Of a DNA stretch of 64,000 nucleotides, positions 2,558 through 59,781 are shown in pieces. Under the pieces are notes generated by a model that was given only the letters and a program-made list of their open reading frames with translations, made no database searches and was not told where the DNA came from. Position 1 is the stretch's first letter; every line of letters starts with the position of its first letter. The stretch is taken from the NCBI GenBank assembly GCA_963827935.1, contig CAWHCN010000011.1, positions 433,183-497,182 of the forward strand. The letters run 5' to 3'. The position numbers and the translations under genes were made by a program. This DNA is from an uncultured Planctomycetota bacterium (lineage in GTDB: Bacteria > Planctomycetota > Planctomycetia > Gemmatales > Gemmataceae).

Positions 2558-2824
2558 ATGGCCAAGAAACCCCGCAAGCCGAAGACCCCTGACCCGGCAT
2601 CCTTCGCATTCGGCGTGCTCCAGCACGTCATCGAGGCTACGGGCGACACGCCGGCCGAGCCCCCGGCCCCGCCGGCGGATGTCGGCAAGGACCCTGCCGC
2701 CGTCGCCCTGGGGCGCAAGGGCGGGTTGAAGGGTGGGCCGGCCAGGGCGAAAAAGCTCGGCAAGAAGAAACTCCGCGAGGCGGCCAAGAAGGCTGCGGCG
2801 GCCCGTTGGGGCAAAGCCGAATGA
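2558..2824 (+). CDS. small basic protein with a GRKGG...KGG...AAARWGK C-terminal motif
   Basis: MAKKPRKPKTP...ALGRKGGLKGGPARAKKLGKKKLREAAKKAAAARWGKAE. This is a KGG-like basic tail seen on small mobile-element or stress proteins. An antisense ORF overlaps it. Confidence 0.3.
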   Translation: MAKKPRKPKTPDPASFAFGVLQHVIEATGDTPAEPPAPPADVGKDPAAVALGRKGGLKGGPARAKKLGKKKLREAAKKAAAARWGKAE

Positions 2825-2829
2825 ACTCA

Positions 2830-3198
2830 CTAGATCAGGTCTTGCTCATCGAGCACTTTTCGACATTCTTCGGGTAGTCGGTGACTATTCTGCAAAGCCC
2901 CGACGCGGAGCTTCTTCAGTAAAGTGGCAGAGCATGGCTTATGAGGCTTCAGCAGCTTCGCTTTGCGTAGAGTTTCGAGAGCGGCCAAGGATGTAACTCT
3001 TGCTCGCTCGTATGGCACATATGTCTTATGGCCAACGAAAGGGTGCTCGCCCTTTTCTACAATACAACCTGCCTTGTCGCCAACCGTGTGTGTCGTAAAA
3101 TTTACGATAACGACATTATCTGAATCTATATTCGTTTCAGATATGATGATCCACAGATGATGGTACATGCCATCAATAAATGTGTCGCCAGGGTTCAT
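2830..3198 (-). CDS. putative toxin partner of the Panacea antitoxin, with a loosely MazF/PemK-like pattern
   Basis: 122-aa ORF. Its start overlaps the upstream Panacea gene stop by 4 nt. GDTFIDG...HLWIIISE...VVIVNFTT...ERARVTSLAALETL loosely fits the PemK/MazF pattern (GD.v.vdf..pvlVlS..vvvvPiTs..dqirtid.rL). The region is AT-richer than background. Confidence 0.35.
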   Translation of the reverse strand: MNPGDTFIDGMYHHLWIIISETNIDSDNVVIVNFTTHTVGDKAGCIVEKGEHPFVGHKTYVPYERARVTSLAALETLRKAKLLKPHKPCSATLLKKLRVGALQNSHRLPEECRKVLDEQDLI

Positions 3199-3762
3199 TT
3201 CTTCCTTGCAAATAGCTTGTCAAAATAGGCTTTTTCTTGAGCATCTTGAAGAATGGCGTCTTTGTCCTTCAATCGGCCAACCGCCTCAATCAGATGCTCA
3301 AAGGGAATGGCAGTTGACGTACCTTTATGGTAGTTTTTCTCCCATTCCTCGAAGTGAGTTTCCCGAGCGATGTCAAAGTCGTCTTGTCCAAGACGCGCGG
3401 CCGACACCTCGTTCAGCAAGCTGACTTCCTGGCGGGATAGGGCGGAAGGGCTGAGGTCAGTAACAAGACTAATGAGATAGTCTTCATTCTGGAAATGGCG
3501 GGACCATTCAGCTTGGTCCGAGTGAGAAGCCCTTTATGAGATCGTATACCTCGCTGTGAATTGGACCGTAGTCCATCGCGCACAAGCGACCGCCGACAAT
3601 TGGCCGACCCCTCCTCTTGAGACTTTCGCGGTCCGCAATGTAAAGAAGGGCCAATAGCCGTTTCCGGCCCATGATTCGATGGGGGGCGAGCCGCAACAGT
3701 GTTGCCGCTGCTTCAATCGCCTTTCGCGTGTCGATGCGGAAAATCATGGCGGTGCTCCTCAA
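3195..3762 (-). CDS. Panacea-domain (DUF4065) antitoxin-like protein PanA, apparent +/-1 frameshift near 3515
   Basis: N-terminal frame: KRLLALLYIADRESLKRRGRPIVGGRLCAMDYGPIHSEVYDLIKG matches the Panacea/SocA/GepA core (KLqKLLYfa....g.pl...f.AwahGPV.pevY). The C-terminal frame continues SHSDQAEWSRHFQNEDYLISLVTDLSPSALSRQEVSLLNEV.... The two frames overlap at 3511-3533. Confidence 0.55.
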
Positions 3763-3935
3763 TCGGTTAGACGGCCCGAAACGTCTAAAGGTTCAGAGCG
3801 GTCACGTCTCCTAGCGGCGATCACCGTGCGCATTCTCCGGCTTTCTACGAAAAAATCCAGCGAATTGTTCTTGCCATGCGTGAGCGGTCACGTATAATAA
3901 GTATGTGGTGTTGATCGTTACCGGGAGCAACTCAG

Positions 3936-4925
3936 ATGCAATGCCCGACCTGCCAGAACGAAGCCCGCAAGTTCGGCCGCGACCGAGCCGGCAACCAGCG
4001 CTACCAGTGCCAGGCGTGCCGCAAGACGTTCTCTGACCGCCCGGTCCGGCCCCTGGGCGAAATGCGCCTGCCGCTCGACAAGGCACTGCCCTGCCTCCAG
4101 CTCCTGACAGAAGGCAACAGCATCCGGGCCACGGTGCGGATCAGCGGCGTGGCGAAAGACACCGTGATTGCCCTTCTGGTCGCGGTCGGGGAGAAGGGCG
4201 AGGCGTTGCTGCGGGAGAGCTTGCGGGGCGTTCCCGCACGGGACGTGCAGCTCGATGAAATCTGGGGATTCATCGGCATGAAGGAGAAGACGAAGACCCG
4301 GAAGGCGCTGGAGACATCGGACATTGGCGATGCGTATTGTTTCGTCGCCATCGAACGGACGACGAAACTGGTTCTCGCGTGGTATCTCGGCAAGCGGGAT
4401 CAGGGCAGCACGCGGATATTCCTTGAGGACGTGGAGCGCTCCACGCGCGGTCGGGTTCAGTTGAGCACGGACGGCTTGAAGTGCTACCCGTCGGCCGTTC
4501 AACTGGCCTTCTCGGAATGGGAGGTTGACCACGGCACGTTGGTCAAGGAGTACGCGACGAAGGCGGATGAGCACCGCTATTCGCCTGGTGAAGTCATTGA
4601 GACTATCAAGGGGGTTTGCTGTGGCAACCCCGACCCGGCAAAGATTTGCACGCGCCACGTCGAACGGCATAACCTGTCGATGCGGATGCAGAACCGGCGC
4701 CTGACCCGGTTGACGAACGCGTTCAGCAAGAAGTGGCAGAACCATGAGGCCGCGCTTGGCCTGTACTTCGCCGTGTACAATTACGTCCGGCCGCACGGTA
4801 CACTTACGCATGACGCAGAGGATCGGCGGAAGACGACCCCGGCGATGGCTGCCGGGTTGACCGATCATCCCTGGACCTTAGTGGAGCTGCTCCAGGCGGC
4901 GGCCAGTGCGGCGTCAACACACTAA
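3936..4925 (+). CDS. IS1595/IS1-like family transposase
   Basis: N-terminal Zn-ribbon CPTCQNEARKFGRD...YQCQACRKTF. DDE region DEIWGFIGMKEK...DGLKCYPSAV. C-terminal ERHNLSMRMQNRRLTRLTNAFSKKWQNHEAALGLYFAVYNYVRPH is typical of IS1595/IS1 transposases. Confidence 0.75.
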   Translation: MQCPTCQNEARKFGRDRAGNQRYQCQACRKTFSDRPVRPLGEMRLPLDKALPCLQLLTEGNSIRATVRISGVAKDTVIALLVAVGEKGEALLRESLRGVPARDVQLDEIWGFIGMKEKTKTRKALETSDIGDAYCFVAIERTTKLVLAWYLGKRDQGSTRIFLEDVERSTRGRVQLSTDGLKCYPSAVQLAFSEWEVDHGTLVKEYATKADEHRYSPGEVIETIKGVCCGNPDPAKICTRHVERHNLSMRMQNRRLTRLTNAFSKKWQNHEAALGLYFAVYNYVRPHGTLTHDAEDRRKTTPAMAAGLTDHPWTLVELLQAAASAASTH

Positions 4926-5057
4926 TCGCCCACTACCCGATTTTTTTGGTTTCTCCGGCCAATGCGTGCAGCGGGACCTTCGGACAGTGGTTCAGCCTGA
5001 GCGGCCAGCACGCTTTGCTCAAACTGATCCTTTATCGCCAGCGCGTGTCTGCACGCG

Positions 5058-5157
5058 CGGAATTATATGCGACCTGGCGCCTGGCGCTGAAATGTGAAGG
5101 CGCATGTCCTGATTTGACAAGGGATTGCGACTCGCGCGCCAGGTCGCATATAATTCC
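5058..5157. repeat. perfect 23-24-bp inverted repeat (GGAATTATATGCGACCTGGCGC ... GCGCCAGGTCGCATATAATTCC) with a ~50-bp spacer
   Basis: Read directly in the sequence. The AT-rich arms contrast with the flanks. It may be an insertion-sequence or MITE end remnant, or a strong hairpin. Confidence 0.6.
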
Positions 5158-5663
5158 CGGCGAATTCAGTACGACATGGCAATTTCCAGGGAACCGGCAG
5201 CGCCTTCCGTCTCCTCGAACCGGTTCGCGAGGCGGCGAAGCATTCCGGCGAGTAGGCGGGGGTTGGCAGGCCAGCCCTGCGGGAGCTTCTTGGTTCCCGT
5301 GAGCCCAGCGGTGTCGGTGAGGCGTGCGAGAAGGTCGCGGACGATGCCTTCCCATGTCCCGCCCTTGTCATGTAACGGTTGGCGGAGGGGCGGCGCGATG
5401 GCCGAGGTGTCGAGGAAGGCCGTTGCTGGGTGAGGTACGATGAGGCGTCATTGACATTTCTCCCCAGAGCGGTCGGGGGAACGCGTGGTCCGGTGAGGTA
5501 CAATCCCGCGAGGGTTCTTTTGCGGGGCCGTTGGCCATGCAGTGCCGCGCCAGTTCCTTGACGATGCTCCGGGGGATGTATGGGCTGCGCCCCAGCCTGG
5601 GGCTGAGCGGGGCGGCAAAGTGACCTGATCGACCGCGGGCGACGTTAGTCGAGGTCGGCGGCG

Positions 5664-5888
5664 TTACTTCTTGCCATTGAGCCAGTCCTCGATTTCCCAG
5701 GCCCTGAAGCGGATCGTGCCGCGCCGGCCAGGGCTCAGCTTAAGCGGCCCCGGGAACCGCCCCGCGGACACGGCGCGTTCGATAGTACGGCGGGTGAGCT
5801 GAACCAGTTCGCAAACGTCAGCCATCGAGAGGAGCTTGTCGATCCGTCCTTGACGCGGAGCTACGGCGGTTTTCGGTGCGGCGAGCAT
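5664..5888 (-). CDS. alpA: AlpA/Xis-family excisionase-type HTH regulator
   Basis: LLSMADVCELVQLTRRTIERAVSAGRFPGPLKLSPGRRGTIRFRAWEIEDWLNGKK is a typical AlpA/HTH_17 prophage regulator sequence. Confidence 0.7.
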   Translation of the reverse strand: MLAAPKTAVAPRQGRIDKLLSMADVCELVQLTRRTIERAVSAGRFPGPLKLSPGRRGTIRFRAWEIEDWLNGKK

Positions 5889-6241
5889 GGCCTGCCTCGG
5901 TTTGTTCTGGGCGAGGATGCCTGTGTCGGCTTGCGGCGTATCACGACGCACCCAAGTCTAACCGGCGAAGGACGGAGAGTTGAGGGGACTAGGCGGACAG
6001 CAGCGATCTTTTGAGTGCCGGCCGGCGGCGTCTATGGACCTTGTCGAGAAGGTTGGACTATAACGGAGTGTTTGTGTAGCGTTAACGGCCCAGCGCCACC
6101 CCCAGCGCTACACCGCGATGACCGGAATGTGTCGGATTGAGTCGTAATGTGTCGTGTGTTTTGTGGGTCGCAACCCATTGCCGTAACAGAGGTTGTCGCA
6201 TCCGGACGCATAACATCGGCATGTGTTGCATAGGGGACAAT

Positions 6242-6287
6242 TCGGATTGCAAATCCGCCATCCCCGGTTCGCATCCGGGAAGGGCCT
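6242..6287 (+). other. tRNA-Cys(GCA) 3'-half remnant (anticodon arm, T-arm, 3' acceptor strand) with no pairing 5' half; putative integrative-element att site
   Basis: CGGATTGCAAATCCG is identical to the E. coli tRNA-Cys anticodon arm. The loop is TTGCAAA (U33, GCA anticodon, A37). The T-arm is CCCGG-TTCGCAT-CCGGG. The following AAGGGCC has no complementary 5' strand upstream. Confidence 0.5.
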
Positions 6288-6499
6288 CTTTCCTCTCAGC
6301 CCGTCTCACGGGGCCGCAAACCCTGTCATCTCCTGCCACCTGACCACCCTGCCACGCGTGGACCAACGCGCGCGAAATGACGACAACTCAGGCCCGGCTC
6401 GGTAAGAAAGACGCTTGAACAGAACCGCCCTCCCTGACCCTGTGGATGGTTCATGGGGGCTTTCCATCGTAACCCATCGGATTGCGAGCGGCACCTGCC

Positions 6500-8602
6500 A
6501 TGCGATGCACCTCTTCCTTGTCCCTGACCCTGTGCTTCCTGCTGCCCGGCCTGGCCGGCGCGGCCCCGCGGGATGGCGCGACCCTGGAACACCTTCTCGG
6601 AGCGCCGTTTCCCACGGCCCTGACGGCGTCACCCGCGGGAGGCCATGTCGCCTGGGTGGCCAACGACCGTGGTCGGCGGAACGTCTGGGTGGCGGAGGCA
6701 CCCGACTACAGAAGTCGCGCCCTCACCAGCTATACCAAGGACGACGGACAGGACCTGGCCGATCTCGCCTGGACAGCGGACGGCCAGAGTGTCTGTTATG
6801 TCCGGGGGAGTCTGGGCCACGATGGCGACCCGTTCAATCCGCGCAGCCGCCCGCGCACACCGGAGCAGGCGGTCTGGATCGTCGCCCGCTCCGGCGGTGC
6901 GCCGCGCCGGCTCGGCGCTGGACACGCCCCAGCCGCCGCGCCCCGGGGCGATCGCGTCGCCTGGCTGCACAAGGGCCAGGTCTGGGCCGCCCCGGTCGGC
7001 GGGCGAGCCGAGGCGGCGCAGCTCTTCCAGGTCCACGGGCAGGTTCAGCAGCTCCGCTGGTCGCCCGACGGCACAACCCTGGCGTTTGTCTCTGACCGTG
7101 GCGATCACAGCTTCATTGGCGTCTATCGGGGATCGGAGCAGCCTATCCTTTGGCTCGATCCGAGCGTGGACCGCGACAGCGAGCCGGCCTGGTCGCCCGA
7201 CGGTCGGCAGATCGCCTTCCTGCGCAGGCCGACCTCGCGCGAGCCGTTCACCTTTGGCCCGCAGCCGACGGCCGAGCCGTGGTCCCTCCGCGTGGCGGCG
7301 GTCGCCGACGGCAAGGGCCAGCAAGTCTGGAAAGCCGATCCCGGAGTCGGCAGCGCCTTTCGCGGCGTCGAGGCGACCAACCAGATCTTCTGGGGGGCCG
7401 ACGACCGCCTCGTCTTCCCCTGGGAGGCCGACGGCTGGACCCACCTCTACGCGGTTGCCGCGACGGGCGGCAAGGCGACCCTGCTCACCCCCGGCAAGTT
7501 CGAGGTGGAAGCGGTAAGCCTGAGCCCGGATCGCCGCCGCCTTGTTTACAGCTCCAACCAGGGCGACATCGATCGCCGACACATCTGGACTGTCCCCGTC
7601 CGCGACGGCGAGCCGGAGCCGCTGATGAAAAGCGTCGGCATCGAGTGGTCGCCCGTGATGACCAGCGACGGCAAGGCGATCGCCTTTCTCCGTTCCGATG
7701 CCCGCCGCCCGGCCCGGCCGGCCATCCGCGTTGGGACGGCGGCCGTCCGCGACCTGGCCGCGATTCCGTCGGACTTCCCCGCCGACCAGCTGGTGATTCC
7801 GTCGCGGGTGACGATCACGGCCGTGGACGGGAAGAAGGCGCCGGGGCAACTCTTTCTGCCGCCCGGCTTGAAGCCCGGCGAACGCCGCCCCGCCATCCTT
7901 TACACGCACGGCGGGTCGCGCCGCCAAATGCTCCTGGGCTGGCACATGATGGCCGGCTACACCAATCACTATGCCCTCAACCAGTACCTGGCCCTGCACG
8001 GCTTCGTCGTGCTGTCGCTCAACTACCGCAGCGGCATCGGCTATGGCCTCGATTTCCGCGAGGCGCCTGGTTACGGCGCCCACGGGGCCAGCGAGTTCAA
8101 CGACCTGCTCGGTGCCGCCCGTTACCTCAAGGACCGCCCGGACGTGGATGCCGGCCGAATCGGTCTCTGGGGTGGGTCCTACGGCGGCTATCTGACCGGG
8201 CTCGGCCTGTCTCGCGCCTCCGACGTGTTTGCCGCCGGTGTCGACATCCACGGTGTCTACGACTGGAACGTGGTCATCCGCAACTTCGAGCCCGGCTACG
8301 ATCCCCTGGCCCGCCGCGAAACGGCCCGCCTGGCCTTCGAGTCATCGCCGGCCGCCTCGATCAAGTCGTGGCGGTCCCCGGTCCTGGTCATCCACGGTGA
8401 GCACGATCCCGACGTGCCCTTTTCCGAGAGCGTACACCTGGTGGAAGACCTGCGGAAGCAGAAGGTGGAGGTGGAGCAGTTGATCTTCCCGGAGGAAGCC
8501 CACGGCTTCCTGACGCACGAGGCGTGGCTGCGCTGCTTGACGGCGACCGCGGAATTCCTCGAGCGCCACCTGGGCAGTCCTGGCCGGAAGGCGATGCCCT
8601 GA
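6500..8602 (+). CDS. S9-family serine peptidase (prolyl oligopeptidase/acylaminoacyl-peptidase type) with an N-terminal beta-propeller and signal peptide
   Basis: Signal peptide MRCTSSLSLTLCFLLPGLAGAAP. WD/TolB-like repeats (WSPDG...). Catalytic GGSYGGY serine motif and a C-terminal His/Asp region (IHGEHDPDVP). Confidence 0.85.
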   Translation: MRCTSSLSLTLCFLLPGLAGAAPRDGATLEHLLGAPFPTALTASPAGGHVAWVANDRGRRNVWVAEAPDYRSRALTSYTKDDGQDLADLAWTADGQSVCYVRGSLGHDGDPFNPRSRPRTPEQAVWIVARSGGAPRRLGAGHAPAAAPRGDRVAWLHKGQVWAAPVGGRAEAAQLFQVHGQVQQLRWSPDGTTLAFVSDRGDHSFIGVYRGSEQPILWLDPSVDRDSEPAWSPDGRQIAFLRRPTSREPFTFGPQPTAEPWSLRVAAVADGKGQQVWKADPGVGSAFRGVEATNQIFWGADDRLVFPWEADGWTHLYAVAATGGKATLLTPGKFEVEAVSLSPDRRRLVYSSNQGDIDRRHIWTVPVRDGEPEPLMKSVGIEWSPVMTSDGKAIAFLRSDARRPARPAIRVGTAAVRDLAAIPSDFPADQLVIPSRVTITAVDGKKAPGQLFLPPGLKPGERRPAILYTHGGSRRQMLLGWHMMAGYTNHYALNQYLALHGFVVLSLNYRSGIGYGLDFREAPGYGAHGASEFNDLLGAARYLKDRPDVDAGRIGLWGGSYGGYLTGLGLSRASDVFAAGVDIHGVYDWNVVIRNFEPGYDPLARRETARLAFESSPAASIKSWRSPVLVIHGEHDPDVPFSESVHLVEDLRKQKVEVEQLIFPEEAHGFLTHEAWLRCLTATAEFLERHLGSPGRKAMP

Positions 8603-10406: not shown

Positions 10407-10546
10407 GTGATGACTCCCGGTCGTCCGCCCCGGGCGGAGGGCGGTGCGGTCCCTCTCATGGTAGAGCATGGAGGACGGCGGTGGGAAGTCAACCCGGGGA
10501 AGCGGGGCCGGCCTTCTCGGCCCGCCAGAAGGGAAAACCACCACGG

Positions 10547-10762
10547 CTGGGTGGCACGCCCTGAGGTACTCCGAAGGGCGTGCTTTACTGGCAGGCTTGC
10601 TTGTTAGCCCGACGCGCTAGCGAGGGTGGGCGAGTCGTTCCCTCGCTGGCGCGTCGGGCTAACATGCACGCCCTTCGGAGTACCTCAGGGCGTGCCACCC
10701 GCCGAAGGGCGTGTTGCAGTGCATGCACGCGCTTCGGAGTACCTCAGGGCGTGCCACCCGCC
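10547..10762. repeat. palindromic intergenic repeat cluster: family A (GGTGGCACGCCCTGAGGTACTCCGAAGGGCGTGC), one forward and two reverse copies, plus one family C hairpin (CCAGCGAGGG...)
   Basis: The same 35-bp unit recurs at 35169-35303, 44722-44803, 58775-58903 and 59700-59781. Copies form long inverted pairs. Confidence 0.8.
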
Positions 10763-15338: not shown

Positions 15339-15544
15339 TCGTGGCCGGACCGGTCGGCCTGCCTCAGCGGGCGGAGCCAGCCCGATGCCCGGCCACACCC
15401 AGGTCGGCGGACCAGAAGCCATCCGGGCAGGCCACCGGCTGACGCGAGCCGCTGCGGTTGGCGGGCGGCAGCTGCAGATCGCTGAACGGGTCCATGATGT
15501 TGCCTCCGCTGGAATTCAGATGTCCGGAAGAGTGGGTGCTATGA

Positions 15545-15690
15545 CGGTGCCACGACAGTGCCACGATGGTGCCACCACCCTGCCACGATGGTGCCGCCAC
15601 GGTGCCACGATGGTGCCAGAGGGTGCCATCAGGGTGCCACGATGGTGCCATCAGGGTGCCATAATGGTGCCACGGGGTGTCCAAGAGTGG
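15545..15690. repeat. degenerate ~12-bp tandem repeat (GTGCCACGATGG)n, about 11 units
   Basis: tgccacgacagtgccacgatggtgccaccaccctgccacgatggtgccgccacggtgccacgatggtgccagagggtgccatcagggtgccacgatggtgccatcagggtgccataatggtgccacgg. It lies intergenically between hemB and the O-methyltransferase. Confidence 0.75.
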
Positions 15691-15825
15691 TGGTGGCACC
15701 CTGGACTGACGGGCCTGGACCCTTCCTTATATCGACTCCCGGGGTAGGCCAGGCCAGCAACCATCCATACGTATGCGAGCGCGGCGTCATTATTTGCGAA
15801 CGCTGTCCAACAGGGGAAGACCATC

Positions 15826-33475: not shown

Positions 33476-33691
33476 ACCTTACCCTCCCTCCGGGGACAGG
33501 ACTTGGGGCGCGGAGGCGGTTGTTGACGAGACTGGTGAGCCCCATGATGGGCGCCCAGGGGCATGGCGTCAACACCTTTCCCCAAGTGCCGAAGCGGCAA
33601 AGCCGCACCGCGGACGCGGCGCGTGCGGCCTGTGCCGTGCGGGGCAGACAAATCGCATCGCAAACCGTCGCGGTGAGGATCTGGCAGCCCG

Positions 33692-33768
33692 AAGCGCCAG
33701 CGAGGGTCTGGGCTGGATCCCTCGCTGGCGCTTTGGGCTGCCCGGCGACCAGGCCGGCGCTGTTTCCC
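33692..33768. repeat. family C palindromic repeat (CCAGCGAGGG-n-CCCTCGCTGG)
   Basis: Copies also at 10596-10662, 55441-55482 and 56434-56495. Confidence 0.6.
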
Positions 33769-34525: not shown

Positions 34526-35168
34526 AGAGGGCCCTCGCAGGGACTGCGGATAACGCTGCGCCGCTGCACATGGGTTGAGCGCGAGCCGGTCCGCCTGGCT
34601 CGCGTCCCAGGACCAGTCCTCTTCTCTAGGCCGCAGTCCATCGGCCTACCGTGCCGCCCCACACCGTTCCGATGCGTCGTGACCCGGGCGGCAAGCGTCG
34701 GCCCGTATGCCGACGAATGCACCACTGCTGCCCTCGACCCAGGAGTGCAACGACCTCGCAGGAGGTCTGAGTTCCGGCCCCGCGTTAACCTGGGTTTCAG
34801 GTAACCGTGATGGAAGAGTGAATCGCAATTAGCGCGCAAGACTTACCGGCGTTACAATTGTTTCAAGAGTCAATGCCGCAAGTTGCGAAATGTGCTATAG
34901 ATATGCGGGCGAGCCTATCATTTCCGTCGTTACGCACTGTCCCCTCAGATCCGGGTTGGCTCCAGCTGCATCGGCGAAAAACTGATCGCGCGGCGAAAAA
35001 TTCGCCGCAGCTCCGGGTTCGACGGCGAGTTGCCTGCCACCCCAGTGGACGGGCGTTCGTTTCCGGAGAGGGGGTGTCCGAGGGGTGCTGAAACGAATGA
35101 TCACAAGTCATGGCGCAGCATTAACTTGGGACATGCGATTCGTTTCAGCTCCGCCTTCAGAGGAAGAG

Positions 35169-35303
35169 GCAGGGTGGCACGCCCTGAGGTACTCCGAAGG
35201 GCGTGCTGCACTGATAGCACGCCCTTCGGAGTACCTCAGGGTGTGCCACCCAGATTGTTGGACCGTCAGCACTCCTTTCGGAGTACCTCAGGGCGTGCCA
35301 GCC
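35169..35303. repeat. family A palindromic repeat cluster (one forward, one reverse and one partial copy)
   Basis: gggtggcacgccctgaggtactccgaagggcgtgc ... gcacgcccttcggagtacctcagggtgtgccaccc ... ctttcggagtacctcagggcgtgcc. Confidence 0.8.
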
Positions 35304-36598
35304 CCCTGACGCTTTAGCAATGTCGCCAGCAACCGGCGATCGCAAGGGTCGATCGCCTGGTCCCAGGGATGCGAGGCCTCGCCCAGCGGGGTCTCGATCA
35401 GGTCGCCGGGATGGGGGCTTGGCTCGGGAGATATGGCGTCGGTCGCCTGGCGAAGCCACGGGGGCAAGTCGTCCAGCCGCAGCGTCGAGCCAGCGTCCGC
35501 TGCACCCAGGGCCTGTCGCAAGACGGCCTCCAGTTGGCGGGTATTGCCCTCCCAGGGCTGCCGTTGCAAGGCCTCTACCACGCCGGGCTCGAATGGCCGC
35601 GCCGGCCGGTAACGGCCGGTCTGCAGGGTGTCGAGGACATGCTGGGCCTGCCGGGCGATGTCTTCCGGCCGGCCGCGCAGCGAGGGCAGCGGGATGCGGA
35701 ACAGGCCCAGGCAGGCGGCCAGGTCCGGATCGAACACCCCATCCAGGACCTGCTGGCGCAGGGCGCCCTCGGTCGCCGCCAGGATGCGCACCTCCGGCGG
35801 CCGCCGTTGTGCCGTCCGCTGCAAGATGGCTTGCAGCGGTGTGTCCAGGCTGGCGATGTGGTCCAGAAAGAGTGTCCCGCCGCTGGCCGCCCGCAGGAGA
35901 TCCTGCCAGCGGTCCGTTTGCGGACCGGGGCTTAGGATCCGCTTCATGGCACGGCAATCCAGGGCGAAATAGGGCATGCGGATGGCGGTCGGGTCGAGGT
36001 AAAGGATGGCCGAGGCCAGCCGTCGCCGCGGCGTCCCCGCTTCGCCCTCGATGAGCACCGGCAAGTCGTGGAAGCGGTTGGCGCGGACGGCGCGGCGGAA
36101 GACGTTGTGCATGGCCGCGCTGGCGCCGACCAGGTTGTAGGGTCGGAACAGGCCGGCCCGGGCCTGGTCCTCGCGCAGCCGGCGGCGCAGCGCTCGCCCC
36201 AGCTCGGCCACCTGGTGACAGAGGGTATCGCCGCGCCTTGGGCCAGTGGCGAGGAATCCGCGGGCCCCGGCAGCCAGCGCCCGTTGTCGGACTGCCTCCG
36301 GAACGGCCCCCGAGTCGGCGTAGAGGTAGACGGCGATGCGGCGGCCCCGCTCCCGCAGGAAGGCCAGCAGGGGCTCCACGCCGGCCCCGGCGGGCAGCGG
36401 CAGGACCGCGGCCGCCGGCGCCCGGCGCCGACACTCCGCGACGGCGGCTGCGAGGTCGCCGGGCGGGAGCACTTCCACTTCGCGGGGCGCGAACGCAGCC
36501 GACGCCCCGGCGCAGGCCGGGCGGGGCTGCAAACAGCAGCGGCGTGTCCATGCGTGGGGATCCGTAACAGGGATGGTGGGCTCAGGGGACCAACCCAA
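35288..36598 (-). CDS. sigma-54-interaction (AAA+) domain regulator with a degenerate Walker A and a receiver-like N-terminus
   Basis: LVGASAAMHNVFRRAV...LPVLIEGEAGTPRRRLASAI (GEAGT instead of GESGTGKE), GTLFLDHIASL, RILAATEGAL, C-terminal CDRRLLATLLKRQGAG (Fis-like). The start codon is uncertain and the N-terminus overlaps the repeat. Confidence 0.55.
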   Translation of the reverse strand: MGWSPEPTIPVTDPHAWTRRCCLQPRPACAGASAAFAPREVEVLPPGDLAAAVAECRRRAPAAAVLPLPAGAGVEPLLAFLRERGRRIAVYLYADSGAVPEAVRQRALAAGARGFLATGPRRGDTLCHQVAELGRALRRRLREDQARAGLFRPYNLVGASAAMHNVFRRAVRANRFHDLPVLIEGEAGTPRRRLASAILYLDPTAIRMPYFALDCRAMKRILSPGPQTDRWQDLLRAASGGTLFLDHIASLDTPLQAILQRTAQRRPPEVRILAATEGALRQQVLDGVFDPDLAACLGLFRIPLPSLRGRPEDIARQAQHVLDTLQTGRYRPARPFEPGVVEALQRQPWEGNTRQLEAVLRQALGAADAGSTLRLDDLPPWLRQATDAISPEPSPHPGDLIETPLGEASHPWDQAIDPCDRRLLATLLKRQGAGTP

Positions 36599-39432: not shown

Positions 39433-39524
39433 GGCGAATATCCCTCAGCGGCGAGCGGGGAGGCGTAAGCCCCCCGGTGACGCGAAAAACCGGGGGGCTA
39501 ACGCCCCCCGCTCGCCGGTTGCTT

Positions 39525-40264: not shown

Positions 40265-40327
40265 GGCGAGCGGGGGGCGTCAGCCCCCCGGTGATCTCAC
40301 CGGGGGGCTGACGCCCCCCGCTCGCCT
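40265..40327. promoter_or_regulatory. 28-bp perfect palindrome (family B) in the divergent Hpt / NtrC-like intergenic region
   Basis: gagcggggggcgtcagccccccggtga tc tcaccggggggctgacgccccccgctc lies between the Hpt start (40243) and the regulator start (40378). Confidence 0.5.
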
Positions 40328-44683: not shown

Positions 44684-44721
44684 GGGGTCCTCGTCTACTG
44701 CGACTGCGCAGTCAAGGCTTC

Positions 44722-44803
44722 CGGGTGGCACGCCCTGAGGTAATCCGAAGGGCGTGCTACACTGACTGCACGCCCTTCGGATTACCTCAGGGCGTGCCAC
44801 CCT
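44722..44803. repeat. family A palindromic repeat pair (variant TAATCC)
   Basis: gggtggcacgccctgaggtaatccgaagggcgtgc tacactgact gcacgcccttcggattacctcagggcgtgccaccc. Confidence 0.8.
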
Positions 44804-49054: not shown

Positions 49055-49801
49055 ATGCGTATCATTCCGGTGCTCGACCTCAAGAACGGCGTCGTAGTAC
49101 GCGGTGTGGGGGGACGTTGAGACGAGTATCGGCCCGTCGTCAGCCGGCTCACGTCCTCACCCGACCCAATGGCCGTGGCCCGCGCCTTCCGCGATCACCT
49201 GGGCCTGGTCGAACTCTACCTCGCCGACCTCGACGCGATCGCCGGGGCCCGGCCGGCCACGGCGCTGTATGCGGAGCTGGTTGCCGCGGGGACCGTCCTC
49301 TGGGTGGACGCCGGAATCCGCTACTGCACCGAACTGCCCCAGGTGGCAGCGACCGGCGTGCAGCGGATCGTGGTCGGCCTGGAGACCATTCTCGGCCCCC
49401 AGGAACTGGCCCTCTGTTCTTGCGAACTGGGCGAGCGGCTCGTCTTCTCGCTCGACTTGAAAGAGGGCCGGCCCCTAGGCGCTCCCTGCTTCTGGGAGAG
49501 TTCAGACGTTCTCGGCATCGCCGCTGAGGCCATCGACCTCGGCGTCCGGCGAATCCTGGTGCTCGACCTGGCCCGGGTGGGCGAACGGCAAGGGACCGGG
49601 ACCGAGGAGTTGTGCGCCGCCCTGGCCGCGCGACATGGCGGTGTGGAGCTGGTCGCCGGTGGAGGCATTCGGGGGCTGGACGATCTGCGGCGGCTGCAGG
49701 CCTGCGGCGTTTGCGCCGCCCTGGTGGCGTCGGCCTTGCACGATGGCTCGCTAACACGCTCCGACCTGGATCAGCTACGGCCGCCACTCGACGGTCGCTG
49801 A
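49055..49801 (+). CDS. HisA/HisF-family TIM-barrel protein with an in-frame TGA at 49118-49120
   Basis: MRIIPVLDLKNGVVVRGVGGR-TGA-DEYRPVVSRLTSSPDPMAVARAFRDHLGLVELYLADLDAI...VDAG...GGGIRGLDDLRRL. The same frame runs before and after the stop. Confidence 0.6.
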
Positions 49802-49804
49802 TTG

Positions 49805-50482
49805 CCCAATCTCGTTCCCAAACTCCGTTTGGGAACGCCGGAGCGAAACTCTGTTTCGCGTCCGCAGATTGGAGCCGCTTACGTCAGCGCCAGTCCGTGA
49901 TCACATCGATCAGGCCCAGAACGCCTGCATAATTGCGCGCTGGAACAGCGCCAATGCACGGGATCGTCAACATATCCGCGCTTTACCGGGTTATAATGAG
50001 CATATTCCAGTTTCTGGATCATCATCTCGTCGTCCTTGATCTGCTTGGGTTTGCTGCCCTCCTCCCAGACCTGGTAATCACTGTTTGTCTTGTGCCGTAG
50101 CTTGAGCGCGCGAAGTTGCTTCAGAAGAACCGTGGCCCCACGAGCCTCCAGCAGATCGACGATCTGACGCGCGGTGTACATCTTGAAGCTCTTGATGACG
50201 CTCGAGATGTCCGGCGCCGATGCGATAAGGTGCAGATGATTCTCGAGGATGACGTAGCCATACAGGCGAAAGTCCTTTTCCTTCCTCAAGAAGTTCCACG
50301 AGTCGAACACGATTTGAACGGCTTCAGGCCGCGTGAATACAGCGAGCCAGCCGACGATCGTACAGGTCAAGAAGTAGGGGTATTCGTTCTCGTAAAATCG
50401 GTAGCGAGTGCGGGTCATGGGAAGCCTCGCAAACGCGAAACGGAGTTTCGCGGGGTGCGTTCCCAAACGGAGTTTGGGAACG
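49805..50482. mobile_element. REP-RAYT-REP unit (REPtron-like): IS200-like tyrosine transposase flanked by inverted palindromic REP pairs, with 58-bp direct repeats outside
   Basis: Left end: gttcccaaactccgtttgggaacgc...gagcgaaactctgtttcgcg. Right end: cgcgaaacggagtttcgcg...gcgttcccaaacggagtttgggaacg. The flanks 49742-49800 and 50487-50545 are identical except for 1 mismatch. Confidence 0.7.
49879..50418 (-). CDS. REP-associated tyrosine transposase (RAYT, IS200/IS605 Y1 family)
   Basis: MTRTRYRFYENEYPYFLTCTIVGW...RLYGYVILENHLHLIASAPDISSVIKSFKMYTARQI has the HxH motif and the catalytic Tyr. Confidence 0.8.
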   Translation of the reverse strand: MTRTRYRFYENEYPYFLTCTIVGWLAVFTRPEAVQIVFDSWNFLRKEKDFRLYGYVILENHLHLIASAPDISSVIKSFKMYTARQIVDLLEARGATVLLKQLRALKLRHKTNSDYQVWEEGSKPKQIKDDEMMIQKLEYAHYNPVKRGYVDDPVHWRCSSAQLCRRSGPDRCDHGLALT

Positions 50483-50516
50483 AGGTGAGGGGCTAACACG
50501 CTCCGACCTGGATCAG

Positions 50517-51005
50517 CTATGGCCGCCACTCGACGGTCGCTGATTGCCCGATATTCTCTTCCACTTCAACGCGCAGCACCTCGGGAACGAACTGATGGTG
50601 CTTGCGCAGGTCCTCCAGCAGCCGCTGGGCGATGTAGCGGGCCAACAACTCGGCGGTGGTGTTCTCGATGGGCAGCAGGACGCAATCGTCCCGCGGAAAG
50701 AGCCACTGCCGGTCGCGATAGCGAACGCTGACGCCGCGCGCACCTTCCTCCAGGACGATGTGCGGATTGCGAGTGGCCAGCATCATGCGATGGTCCAGCT
50801 CATCGGTGATGGCCTTGGTGCGGTGCTTGAGGGCGATGAAGTCGAAGACGTACTGGTTTTTGTCGAGGGGACCCTCAATCTCGACCGCGGCGCGGTAGTT
50901 GTGGCCGTGCAGCCGTTCGCAACGGTCGCCCTCATAGCTGATGAAGTGCCCGCTACAGAACACCAGGTGGTCCTTCGTGACTCGGACCTTGAAGCGCTCG
51001 GACAT
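50517..51005 (-). CDS. queD: 6-carboxytetrahydropterin synthase QueD / 6-pyruvoyl-tetrahydropterin synthase family
   Basis: CSGHFISYEGDRCERLHGHNY carries the CxxxHGH zinc motif. Confidence 0.75.
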   Translation of the reverse strand: MSERFKVRVTKDHLVFCSGHFISYEGDRCERLHGHNYRAAVEIEGPLDKNQYVFDFIALKHRTKAITDELDHRMMLATRNPHIVLEEGARGVSVRYRDRQWLFPRDDCVLLPIENTTAELLARYIAQRLLEDLRKHHQFVPEVLRVEVEENIGQSATVEWRP

Positions 51006-52099: not shown

Positions 52100-52161
52100 G
52101 GCGAGCGGGGGGCGTAAGCCCCCCGATTGAACAATCAGGGCGATTACGCCCCCGGCTCGCC
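52100..52161. terminator. family B palindromic hairpin between convergent genes
   Basis: ggcgagcggggggcgtaagccccccg...cgattacgcccccggctcgcc. Confidence 0.5.
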
Positions 52162-55406: not shown

Positions 55407-55476
55407 GGCGTGGAGGCAACTCCAGCGCGGAGCCCGTGGCGTCAGCGAGGGCGCTCCGCCGAAACCCTCGCTGACG

Positions 55477-56094
55477 CTACGGGCTCTGACTCGTGGGATT
55501 GTTGCCCAGGTAAAAGCGACCGACTCGCTCCTCAAACCACACCATGCGTGGGTCGTCCAAAGCCGCCACCGTCTGCCATTCGGTTCGGACCGGATCGAGG
55601 TCCAGTTGGCCCTGGTTGCCGGCCAGCAGGTTCTCGATGTCCACCTGATCTTGAAGGCGAAAGGCCAGCAGTTTCATAAGGATGAGCCCTTCCGCGGTAG
55701 CGACGAGGACCGGGTGACCGAACCAGTCCTCAAGAAATGCCTGGTCAAGCACGTGTTGATACGCGAGTAGCGCCGGCTTGAGCCAATCGATCCGGACACC
55801 GTGGAACGACATCACCGTCATGCTCTCGCGGGTCCATTCGCGGATGGCGACATCCGTCTCAAATGCAAAACCGCGGGCGCGCAACTCATCCAGCAGCCCC
55901 GGCAAGGTGATCTGCGGAACCTGGAGCAATAGGTCCACATCCTCGGTAAACCGGGGTCGGCCACGATAGGCCGCGGCTAACCCGCCGATCAGGGCATACT
56001 TGATCCGTCGCGCATCCAGCGCTTCCGTCAGTTGCCGCACGCCGTCGAGCAGGTATTCCGGGAACTCAACAGTTTCAGGTTCCATGACGCGCAA
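55477..56094 (-). CDS. Pol-beta-superfamily nucleotidyltransferase-like protein
   Basis: IKYALIGGLAAAYRGRPRFTEDVDLLLQVP is a GG/S-x(n)-DxD nucleotidyltransferase-type motif. Confidence 0.45.
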   Translation of the reverse strand: MRVMEPETVEFPEYLLDGVRQLTEALDARRIKYALIGGLAAAYRGRPRFTEDVDLLLQVPQITLPGLLDELRARGFAFETDVAIREWTRESMTVMSFHGVRIDWLKPALLAYQHVLDQAFLEDWFGHPVLVATAEGLILMKLLAFRLQDQVDIENLLAGNQGQLDLDPVRTEWQTVAALDDPRMVWFEERVGRFYLGNNPTSQSP

Positions 56095-56308: not shown

Positions 56309-56681
56309 GCGATTTCTCCGACAAGCGAGCACCTGCGCGAGTCATCGTGATTATATCGCCGCGGCCTGTGCCTTGCGAGCGTCTTCGGCTATCCCCCCCG
56401 GTTCGCGATTCAGCCGTCGCCAGAGCCAAATCGGGCAGCCCGACGCGCCAGCGAGGGATTCCGGCCAAACCCTCGCTGGCGCGTCAGGCTGCCCGGACCG
56501 GCCGCTGGTGGGGCAATTGCAGTGCCGTCCGTGAATGTAACCGAACCCCGCCCGGCAGTACCTTGTGGTTGTGGCATAATCGCTCCTACGGTAACATCAA
56601 CCAGTGAACACCCGACCGGGCGCGGGGCAGTCGGCCCTGGCCCGGCATCCTTTCCCCGAGGAATGCGAGGCTTCTGGACCA

Positions 56682-58780
56682 TGCCGCGAACGCACGCTTC
56701 CCGTCAAATCACTGTCGCTCCTCCTGGTCGGCCTGGCCGGCCTGTTTCTGATGCCGGCACCCACGCCGGCCGAACCACACATCGGCAAGCAGGACCCTGC
56801 CGTCGCCAAGCTGGTCTGCGAGTTCCTCCACGGCGGGCCACCTCAACCGCCCGGAAATCGGCGACGAGATGTCCAAACGCCTCTTCCGCCGCTTCCTCAA
56901 GGGCCTCGATCCCACCAAGCTCTATTTCCCAAGAGCGACATCGACGAGTTCAAGAAGCACGAAACCGACCTCGACGATCAGCTCCTCAGGCCGGCGACTC
57001 AGCTTCGCCTACAAGGTTTACGAGCGTTTCATCGACGCGCGTCGCCGAACGCCAGAAGCTGATCGAGGAACTGGTCGAGGCCAAGCACGATTTCACCGTC
57101 GAAGGAAAGCCTGGACACCGAATCACGACGCGATGCGACTACGCCGAGCAACGAGGCCGAGGTCCACGAGCGCTGGCGGAAGCGGATCAAGTTCGACCTG
57201 CTGGTGCAGCGCATGGCCGAGAAGCCGATGCCCGAGGCCGAGGCCAAGAAGAAGATCCTGACCCGCTACCAGAGCGTCCTCAAGCGCTGGAAGCAGGTGG
57301 ACAACTCCGATCTCCTGGAACTCTATCTCGCCGACCTGGCCACCAGCGTCGATCCGCATTCGACCTACATGTCGCCGACCACGCTGGACGATTTCGAGAT
57401 CGCCATGCGCCTGAACCTGGACGGCATCGGGGCGGTGCTGCGGCAGGAGAACGGCCAGACCATCATCGTGGAAGTCGTGCCCGGCGGCGCGGCGGCCAAG
57501 GACGGCCGGCTCAAGCCCAAGGACAAGATCGTCGGCGTGGCCCAGGGCGACGACAAGTTTGTCGACGTGATCGACATGAGGCTGCGCGACGTGGTCAAGC
57601 TGATTCGCGGGCCGCGCGGCACCAAGGTGCAATTGAAGGTCGTCCCGGCCAGGCAAGGTCGACCGCGTCGTCTACGACCTGACCCGCCAGAAGATCGAGC
57701 TGAAGTCGCAGGAGGCCCGCGGCGAGATCGTCGAGCAGGGCAAGAAAGCCGACGGCAAGCCGTACCGGATCGGCGTCATCGACCTGCCGTCCTTCTACGC
57801 CGAAATCGACCCCGGCGGCGACGGCAAGCCGGACGCCAAGAGCGCCACCGAGGACGTCCGCAAGATCCTCAAGGAGTTCGATGCCAAGGGGGGCGTGGAC
57901 GGCGTGGTGCTCGACCTGCGCCGCAACGGCGGCGGCTTGCTGACGAAGCCCTGCGCCCTGACCGGGCTGTTCATCGACCAGGGGCCGGTCGTCCAGGTGA
58001 AGAGACGCCGCAGGGCCGGGTCGCACCATCAGGACGACCCGGACAAGGGGATCGTCTACGGCGGGCCGCTCGTGGTGCTAGTCAGCCGATTCAGCGCCAG
58101 CGCGTCGGAAATCCTGGCCGGCGCGCTTGCAGGACTACGGCCGGGCCCTGATCGTCGGCGACTAGCACCACCTACGGCAAGGGGACGGTGCAGACGATCA
58201 TCGACCTGGGCATCGAGGCTTCGGACCAGAACCCGCGCCAAGCTGGGCGCCCTGAAGCTCACCATCCAGCAGTTCTATCGCCTCAACGGCGACAGCACGC
58301 AGGATCGCGGCGTGCTGTCCGACGTCGTCCTGCCGTCGCTGACCGAGTACATCACCAGCGGCGAGAAGGAGCAGGAGTTTGCCCTGGCCTTCGACAAGGT
58401 CAACCCGGTGGAGCACGAGGAGTTGGGGCTGGTGCCGGCCGACCTGAAGGCGGTCCTCAAGGAGCGTTCCGCCAAGCGCGTCAAGGACTCCGCCGATTTT
58501 ACCAAACTGGCCAAGGACATCGAGCATCTTCAAGGCACGCAAGGCGAAGAAGAAGCTGCCGCTCAATGAGAAGGAGCTGCGCGAGCAGACCAAGAAGGAC
58601 GATGCCGACAAGCTGGAGCAGAAGATCAACGATCTGGCCCCGCCCGAGGCTCCGTCAGGCGATGCTACCTTCAAGTTCAAGCACAACTACATGAACGACG
58701 AGGTCCTGCGGATCATGGAGGACTTCATCCAGGGCAAACGGCTGGTGGCGGGCGCTGAGGCGGCAGCTGTCATTGGGGTG
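56682..58780 (+). pseudogene. prc: tail-specific (C-terminal processing) protease Prc/S41A-like, split over at least 7 frame changes
   Basis: Signal peptide and fragments across three frames: DIDEFKKHETDLDDQLL, SFAYKVYERFIDARR, LIEELVEAKHDFTVEGKPGHRITTRCDYAEQ, LLVQRMAEKPMPEAEAKKKILTRYQSVLKRW...IAMRLNLDGIGAVLRQENGQTIIVEVVPGGAAAKDG (PDZ), GVVLDLRRNGGG...VVLVSRFSASASEILAGAL (S41 catalytic Ser region), LGALKLTIQQFYRLNGDSTQ. The 3' end merges into a family A repeat. Confidence 0.65.
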
Positions 58781-58903
58781 GCACGCCCTGAGGTACTCCG
58801 AAGGGCGTGCTGCCTCATGAACACGCCCTTCGGAGTACCTCAGGGCGTGCTGCCTCATGAACACGCCCTTCGGAGTACCTCAGGGCGTGCCACCCTGCAT
58901 TTC
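58775..58903. repeat. family A palindromic repeat cluster (one forward and two reverse copies with identical spacers TGCCTCATGAAC)
   Basis: ggggtggcacgccctgaggtactccgaagggcgtgctgcctcatgaacacgcccttcggagtacctcagggcgtgctgcctcatgaacacgcccttcggagtacctcagggcgtgccaccc. Confidence 0.8.
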
Positions 58904-59235: not shown

Positions 59236-59715
59236 ATGAACGCCAATGGGAACCGTCAGTACCGTCCGCAACTTGAATTGCTGGAAGACCGGTTCCTTCT
59301 GAGCGGCTATCGCCGGATCGTCCTGCTGCCTGCGCCGCAGATTCATCCCATCGTGCCGGCCACGCGCGGGACGGGCACACCAGCGGATATCCACACCATC
59401 GTCAACCCGGCCAACGTCGTCACGAGCTCCGTTTCCATCGTGCCCCAGCACATCAGCCTGGGCTTATTCGACCAGCCGACCCCAATCACGATCAGCGGCG
59501 TCGATCCAGGATTGACCACGCCGGGCCTGCCCGTGGTGACAAACTTTGCCAGCGATCCGGGCCTGACGATGCCGGGTTTGCCCATCTACTGCGCCGTCAC
59601 AGCCTGTGATGCCCCCTCCCTTGCAGGTAGGCGGACTCACGCTTTCGCCCGAGGGCATCATCAGCGGCAGCTTCCCGTAAGGGCCCTCAAATCAAAGATG
59701 GGTGGCACGCTCTGA
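59236..59715 (+). CDS. small secreted hypothetical protein with a Gemmata-type N-terminal LEDR motif
   Basis: MNANGNRQYRPQLELLEDRFLLSG..., then Pro/Gly/Thr-rich repeats (GVDPGLTTPGLPVV / ASDPGLTMPGLPIY). Confidence 0.5.
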   Translation: MNANGNRQYRPQLELLEDRFLLSGYRRIVLLPAPQIHPIVPATRGTGTPADIHTIVNPANVVTSSVSIVPQHISLGLFDQPTPITISGVDPGLTTPGLPVVTNFASDPGLTMPGLPIYCAVTACDAPSLAGRRTHAFARGHHQRQLPVRALKSKMGGTL

Positions 59716-59781
59716 GGTACTCCGAAGGGCGTGCAGTTAGTGCAGCACGCCCTTAGGAGTACCTCAGAGCGTGCCACCCGA
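59700..59781. repeat. family A palindromic repeat pair (variant)
   Basis: gggtggcacgctctgaggtactccgaagggcgtgcagttagtgcagcacgcccttaggagtacctcagagcgtgccaccc. Confidence 0.8.

Follow-up and report, generated by a model that had tools for sequence, protein, structure and literature searches.

The 64,000-nucleotide DNA stretch analyzed here (the window) derives from an uncultured Planctomycetota bacterium of the family Gemmataceae (contig CAWHCN010000011.1, positions 433,183 to 497,182). It hosts a unit of ~680 bp made by a gene encoding a REP-associated tyrosine transposase (RAYT), flanked at both sides by repetitive extragenic palindromic (REP) hairpins, an arrangement known as a REPtron. The unit separates two convergent genes, and is bounded by near-identical direct repeats of 61 nt. 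The locus is best explained by insertion of the REPtron into a 27-bp overlap of the two convergent genes, accompanied by duplication of a 61-bp target spanning the overlap, an interpretation which we regard as likely.

The interrupted gene pair

The gene at the left of the unit (49055-49801, plus strand) belongs to the HisA/HisF family (Pfam His_biosynth, PF00977, 1e-31; the best NCBIfam match, TIGR00734 hisAF_rel, is below cut-off), and has its last 52 nt, TGA stop included, within repeat copy 1. The gene at the right (50517-51005, minus strand) belongs to the PTPS/QueD family (Pfam PF01242, 8e-23), measures 162 codons from the ATG, and has its last 36 nt within repeat copy 2. Its product is 100% identical to a database protein of 162 aa (P0121). 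In copy 1 (49750-49810), the HisA/HisF-like 3' end is functional (stop at 49799-49801), and a PTPS-like end (stop at 49775-49777, minus strand) is redundant. In copy 2 (50492-50552), the PTPS-like 3' end is functional (stop at 50517-50519, minus strand), and the last 17 HisA/HisF-like codons are redundant. Since both stops are present in each copy, 27 bp apart, the HisA/HisF-like and the PTPS-like genes overlapped tail to tail before the duplication.

The two copies can be aligned over 61 nt with 2 mismatches (97% identity), or over 58 nt with 1 mismatch. The 58-mer occurs twice in the window, both times at the RAYT gene, and is missing in shuffled sequence. One mismatch is a synonymous change (CCG to CCA) in the copy serving the PTPS-like gene; in the other copy, a HisA/HisF-like Arg codon constrains the same position. 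The second falls just beyond the stop of the HisA/HisF-like gene. Both fit drift following duplication.

A preliminary description of the locus, made from the sequence, had reported near-identical direct repeats bounding a ~680-bp unit. The repeats are as described, save that the right end, set at 50545, was placed a few bases short. The repeat had been further identified with the 3' end of the hisA-like gene. This is correct for copy 1, which is native there, but it was missed that the PTPS-like gene natively terminates in copy 2. The alternative origin offered in the same description, homologous recombination of segments bearing REPs, is unsupported, because the 61-bp repeat contains no REP sequence.

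The same gene junction is found uninterrupted in other genomes. In L001 (PTPS 91% identical) and in four contigs (L004-L007; 89%) from metagenome-assembled genomes (MAGs), the PTPS gene (6001-6489) and the His_biosynth gene (6463-7209, opposite strand) overlap by 27 bp, and no RAYT gene is found. RAYT is absent also in L168, where the two genes are 22 bp apart, while L002 and L003 have the PTPS gene next to another neighbour. The junction DNA of L001 and L004-L007 is single copy, aligns to both repeat copies of the window and extends into both flanks, and the 27-bp overlap of these genomes falls inside the 61-bp repeat. Judged from the alignments, the 61 bp are a duplicated native target, and neither a repeat family nor part of the element. 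The long repeat had been viewed in the preliminary description as an insertion footprint, to be reconsidered if the 58-mer were frequent away from RAYT genes, and empty sites in relatives had been indicated as a check. This view is borne out by the RAYT-free orthologous sites, where the repeat is single-copy coding DNA, as by the presence of only two copies in the window.

In some relatives (L004, 1-5916; L168, 884-4987) the PTPS and HisA/HisF-like pair resides beside genes for methenyl-tetrahydromethanopterin cyclohydrolase, ATP-grasp and CitG-like proteins. These neighbours suggest that the interrupted pair is part of a methanopterin-related cluster. In the window, the HisA/HisF-like gene features an in-frame TGA at 49118-49120 (codon 22, GGR*DEYRPV), where two relatives have Arg. 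Either the gene is a pseudogene, or the TGA is a sequencing error. Initiation at a downstream ATG (49169) would yield a protein devoid of the N-terminal strand.

The transposase gene and its hairpins

The RAYT gene (49879-50418, minus strand, 179 codons) is the sole open reading frame (ORF) in the insert. Its product matches the NCBIfam model NF047646 (REP-associated tyrosine transposase) with 95 bits (cut-off 80), and the Pfam Y1_Tnp model with only 20.7 bits, under the cut-off of 23. The HUH residues, H61-L-H63, and the conserved tyrosine Y139, located in the motif LEYAHYNPV, fall in invariant columns of an alignment with 10 homologues. Nearly all homologues measure 178 aa and end with ...HWRYSSARNYAGxPGLxxVxTDWR. 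The window protein departs from them beyond residue 161, as a -2 frameshift at codon 162, in a GC run at ~49935-49940, replaces the conserved SSARNYAG...TDWR tail, and the reading frame through the tail is not intact. The tail (ARNYAGVLGLIDVITDWR*) is legible only in an alternative frame, and the ancestral frame would stop at the TGA at 49884-49886, which indicates that two bases were lost in the GC run. In addition, Tyr158, nearly invariant in homologues, is changed to Cys. Because of the frameshift, which removed the conserved tail, and of the Tyr158 change, the window RAYT is probably decaying, though the HUH motif and Tyr139 are intact. RAYTs out of frame near the C-terminus are found also in P0014 (75% identical) and P0071, apparently by different changes, and their frames continue into the REP, which is translated as ...AFPNGVWER. 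Either this RAYT family often suffers frameshifts at the C-terminus, or the tail is dispensable.

Two hairpins are found at each side of the gene, in inverted orientation. The outer REP hairpin at the left, a (49811-49838; GTTCCCAAAC-TCC-GTTTGGGAAC), directly abuts repeat copy 1, and forms a perfect (100%) 28-nt inverted repeat with its right partner, a prime (50457-50484). The inner hairpin at the left, b (49843-49861; GCGAAAC-TCT-GTTTCGC), and its right partner, b prime (50433-50451), make a 19-nt inverted repeat, with 95% complementarity. Between the right outer REP and repeat copy 2 there is a 7-nt filler, GTGAGGG (50485-50491), matching neither the target nor the inverted repeat. Every arm is itself palindromic, and the hairpin pairs, folded as single-stranded DNA, reach -20 to -22 kcal/mol (z -5.5 to -7.6 relative to shuffles). 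The sequence GTTCCCAAACTCCGTTTGGGAAC is found at 49814-49836, and its reverse complement at 50459-50481; CGCGAAACGGAGTTTCGCG is found at 50434-50452, and its left copy differs at 2 positions. The presence of a Y1 transposase gene with an HxH motif, and of inverted pairs of palindromic REPs carrying these two sequences at both sides of it, had been noticed in the preliminary description, and both features are found as reported.

Further copies of hairpins a and b were not found in the 64-kb window, while some of the related loci carry additional copies of their cognate REPs distant from the RAYT gene. The hairpin core TTCCCA...TGGGAA was identified in 116 of the 169 loci fetched, typically at both sides of RAYT and ~50-100 nt away from it. 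The core, more fully TTCCCA..C-loop-G..TGGGAA, is kept at RAYTs only 45-84% identical to that of the window (L008-L167; most hairpins at ~2930-2960 and 3570-3600). Host organisms of loci with the conserved core are Planctomycetota, gammaproteobacterial methanotrophs and purple sulfur bacteria. L170 has exactly the hairpin sequence of the window, yet its RAYT shares no more than 75% identity with the window RAYT; just downstream of the L170 RAYT gene there are two genes (4654-6687) for reverse transcriptases of the group II intron type. A scan for promoters and terminators at the REPs of the window gave no result.

The unit differs in composition from the DNA that surrounds it. The GC content is 53.9% in the RAYT ORF and 55.4% in the entire unit, against 65.8% in the window, and the ORF is among the 1% of 540-bp windows poorest in GC. 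RAYT genes of six other genomes are only 3-5 points below their flanks in GC content. The nearest RAYTs (P0002 and P0003, 84% identical at the amino acid level) have adjoining genes unrelated to those of the window, as denoted by the gene lists. The best match in the scan of species-representative genomes is 74% identical, and only distant relatives, at most 43% identical, were found in a plasmid collection. The low GC content, the unrelated neighbours of the nearest RAYTs and the lack of other hairpin copies in the window suggest that the unit arrived fairly recently, possibly from another genome; the donor probably had a lower GC content. As for inheritance of the RAYT gene, the comparison, which included no close strain, shows an empty orthologous site in L001, L004-L007 and L168, the nearest RAYTs located elsewhere, and two diverged copies in one MAG.

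Recurrence at other loci and rival explanations

A total of 160 loci carrying relatives of the window RAYT were collected, 80 from species-representative genomes and 80 from metagenomes; about 130 RAYT loci of the family were analysable. Palindromic sequence was masked, and flanking direct repeats with at least 35 non-palindromic bases were scored; controls were taken 1.4-2 kb away within the loci. Flanking non-palindromic repeats were found at 9 of 81 RAYT positions, and at 1 of 120 shifted controls; several of the former proved, on hairpin mapping, to be REP arrays. The clean layout repeat-REP-RAYT-REP-repeat, with repeats made of local gene DNA just beyond the outer hairpins, was identified in five further loci among those analysable. 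The repeats measure 147 bp (98% identity) in L013, where they include the end of a membrane-fusion gene, the spacer and the initial 66 bp of an AcrB-type pump gene; 70 bp (90%) in L029, drawn from the tail of a CBS-domain gene; 328 to about 358 bp (91%) in L030, where an entire DUF6429 gene is duplicated; 107 to about 131 bp (87%) in L114, from the end of an Eco57I-type methylase gene; and 203 bp (98.5%) in L146, from the first part of cas4, the 19 bp shared with cas7 included. In the latter, the REPtron (2689-3999) resides within a CRISPR-cas operon, between cas7 and cas4, the frames of which overlap by 19 bp, and the duplication leaves both genes complete.

A 99-bp repeat located 170-240 nt from the REPs in L075 was counted only as a looser, sixth case. 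Repeats at L023, L031, L036, L071, L090, L124, L141, L154 and L162 were discarded as target duplications, as hairpin mapping revealed REP arrays or REPIN-like units. Some of the clean loci reside on contigs of several hundred kb, and an assembly artefact is therefore unlikely. The copies in L013 and L021, which belong to one MAG, are 89% identical over 738 bp, a stretch bounded by the outer REPs. The identity ending at the outer hairpins indicates that REP-RAYT-REP is the copied unit.

Two rivals to the insertion of the REPtron with duplication of its target are less likely. The first, which we deem unlikely, is an integration of the Campbell type, in which circular or transferred DNA, carrying a REPtron and a diverged copy of the junction, recombined homologously with the resident junction. 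The locus would resemble prophages bearing a replacement 3' gene end, and the mismatches would reflect divergence of donor and recipient. Consistent with this, the repeat copies are not identical, neither here (97%) nor at the other loci (87-98.5%), the low GC content of the unit suggests foreign DNA, and an end repeat which rebuilds a gene is the classic attL/attR picture. However, such an integration merely shifts the problem, as an earlier event must have placed the REPtron beside a copy of the junction. An integrase is absent, RAYT being the only ORF in the insert. The repeats differ at each locus and come from local genes, so that the same history would be required each time, and both mismatches in the window are explicable as drift under selection.

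It is quite unlikely, second, that two events took place, a 61-bp tandem duplication which first parted the gene ends, and a later landing of the REPtron in the new, non-essential junction. About 34 bp around a tandem junction would be free of coding constraint, and an insertion would be tolerated there, but junctions of tandem duplications are rare, and ordinary intergenic DNA offers a far larger target. No tandem duplication without a REPtron was seen among the relatives examined (L001, L004-L007, L168). Moreover, in the window and in all five other clean loci the unit is found at the junction of the two repeat copies, and not at a random point, as expected if duplication and insertion are one event, and not if the tandem duplication came first. 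A third view, which takes the 58-bp sequence for a dispersed repeat, or for a direct repeat at the ends of a larger mobile element, finds no support beyond the two copies and is effectively excluded, as only these two are present in 64 kb, the sequence is single-copy conserved coding DNA at the junction in three RAYT-free relatives, and other RAYT loci have unrelated repeats made from their own neighbour genes.

Several observations weigh against insertion with target duplication, or limit what can be derived from it. Such repeats are missing at about 95% of the RAYT loci of the family, L170 with its identical REP sequence among them. The gap between REP and repeat is variable, measuring 0-20 nt at the RAYT-upstream side and 0-49 nt, made of unrelated filler, at the other; this variability speaks against ends set precisely by an enzyme. 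The relatives with empty sites are not close strains of the source organism, nor is any other genome compared, and their HisA/HisF-like proteins are 63-73% identical to that of the window, which makes the timing loose. Copy numbers of repeat and hairpins refer to the 64-kb window, a part of the source genome. HUH Y1 transposases of the IS200/IS605 type are not known to duplicate their targets on insertion, and how the duplication forms is a matter of inference.

The left repeat copy completes the HisA/HisF-like frame and the right copy the PTPS-like frame. The gene tails no longer overlap, and a strong hairpin comes after each of them. The duplication was probably coupled to the insertion in a single event. 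Two candidate routes may be envisaged. The two strands could be broken at points tens to hundreds of nt from each other, and the gaps then filled in; alternatively, the element, in single-stranded form, could be joined at a replication fork, with a growing 3' end at one side of it and a displaced 5' flap at the other. The variable length of the repeats and the presence of filler favour a route involving repair synthesis over exact cleavage. The redundant portions of the repeats would decay after insertion, and this would explain why few loci have repeats, as well as their identities of 87%-98.5%.

Comparison of the six clean loci, the window included, revealed no common cleavage or target motif at their junctions, but six are too few to exclude one. 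An imperfect likeness only was seen between the foot of the REP (CTCGTTCC) and the native CTCTTCC beside one junction. A shared end, ...GGGAACGAGGTGAG, found in the window and in L013 was dropped, because it resides at opposite sides relative to RAYT.

Relation to known systems, and other repeats of the window

REPtrons, in which RAYT (TnpA-REP) genes are flanked by REPs or REPINs, are known in Escherichia coli, Pseudomonas and Stenotrophomonas (PMC3116915, PMC5581495, PMC8266576). According to the literature, there is no evidence of mobility for tnpA-REP (PMC8266576). RAYTs are stated to keep to the same extragenic space, without mediating their own transposition (bioRxiv 10.1101/2021.07.10.451892), and to have low duplication rates, varying with the RAYT group (PMC5581495). 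How REPs and RAYT genes reach new sites is given as still unknown (PMC8266576; bioRxiv 10.1101/2021.07.10.451892), and long flanking target duplications are not mentioned in PMC8266576, PMC5581495 and bioRxiv 10.1101/2021.07.10.451892. The window unit is a REPtron by its protein and hairpins. Like known REPtrons it features a Y1 HUH protein of ~178 aa scoring above the RAYT model cut-off, inverted palindromic REPs and the family core TTCCCA...TGGGAA. It differs from published REPtrons as it is missing at the same site in relatives, is flanked by a 61-bp target duplication, has a low GC content and a frameshifted gene, and its REPs are restricted to a single locus in 64 kb.

Features are shared also with the insertion sequences (ISs) of the IS200/IS605 family, such as a single-domain Y1 HUH transposase and hairpin-forming ends. 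Moreover, the whole unit has apparently moved, or been copied, within single MAGs (L013 and L021, L025 and L027). IS200/IS605 elements are not known to make target duplications; they have subterminal hairpins which differ at the left and right ends and no terminal inverted repeats, and insert beside a fixed motif of 4-5 nt. In contrast, the window unit is flanked by the 61-bp duplication, has a perfect 28-nt terminal inverted repeat and a second one of 19 nt, and no shared flanking motif was found; its transposase, in addition, scores below the Pfam Y1_Tnp cut-off. By the target duplication and the symmetric ends, the unit is not an IS200/IS605 element; a target motif was not found either, with only six loci compared.

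Direct repeats of 3' gene ends, which leave the frames complete, are found as well at integrative elements that replace gene ends, such as islands targeting tRNA genes and prophages residing in protein genes. Unlike integrase-borne islands, the insert carries no tyrosine or serine recombinase, and the repeat varies from locus to locus, being drawn from local genes. Target duplications of bacterial IS elements typically measure 2-14 bp. Long or variable duplications result from widely staggered strand attacks, as in the duplication of CRISPR repeats by Cas1-Cas2 and in the target-primed insertion of LINE-1. The flanking duplications described here are similarly long and vary in length across loci (58 to about 358 bp), but the enzyme class is unrelated and positions of strand cuts are not seen here, so that the likeness is an analogy only.

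RAYTs are presented in the literature as domesticated, non-jumping transposases (PMC8266576; bioRxiv 10.1101/2021.07.10.451892), and the locus bears on this notion. REPtrons of the family, a widespread one hosted by Planctomycetota and also by Methylococcaceae and Chromatiaceae, may still move as whole REP-RAYT-REP units, with target duplications of tens to hundreds of bp (58 to about 358 bp in the cases seen); this generalization is put forward tentatively. If true, the footprint would be unlike any described for HUH Y1 transposases, and would indicate single-stranded gaps or flaps, or else widely staggered breaks, as the points of entry. As the duplication rebuilds the interrupted gene ends, the units could enter gene-dense sites, such as overlapping genes and operon junctions, without inactivating the neighbours. 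The locus is a case dated by comparison, with a site empty in relatives, a foreign-looking composition and a clean footprint, and illustrates a route by which two overlapping genes can be separated with neither being lost. A long and recurrent footprint provides a searchable signature of recent REPtron arrivals, and a constraint on models of insertion.

Other repeats mark the window. An abundant 35-nt palindromic repeat, GGGTGGCACGCCCTGAGGTACTCCGAAGGGCGTGC, is arranged in inverted, REPIN-like doublets at 10545-10760, 35168-35310, 44719-44803, 58769-58898 and 59696-59780, and is unrelated to the hairpins flanking RAYT. Elements of a second palindromic family, GGCAGCCCGA.GCGCCAGCGAGGG..., are found at 33679-33745, 56430-56496, 55455-55485 and 10606-10626, those of a third, GGCGAGCGGGGGGCGTCAGCCCCCCGG..., at 40265-40326, 52100-52161 and 39489-39516. 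No cognate transposase for the latter two families is visible in the window, and none of the other repeat clusters of the window, those of GGGTGGCACGCCCTGAGGTACTCCGAAGGGCGTGC included, has flanking direct repeats. The REPs at the RAYT gene had been held to differ from the abundant repeat families of the window; in agreement with this, the sequences differ and no copies are shared. A tandem array of GATGGTGCCAC-like units, with a period of 11 bp, is located at 15521-15694. The only other low-GC patch of the window (2700-3900 and 3936-4925; 46-55% GC) contains small ORFs and adjoins an ORF with a zinc-finger-like N-terminus, resembling an IS transposase. The patch may be another mobile insertion.

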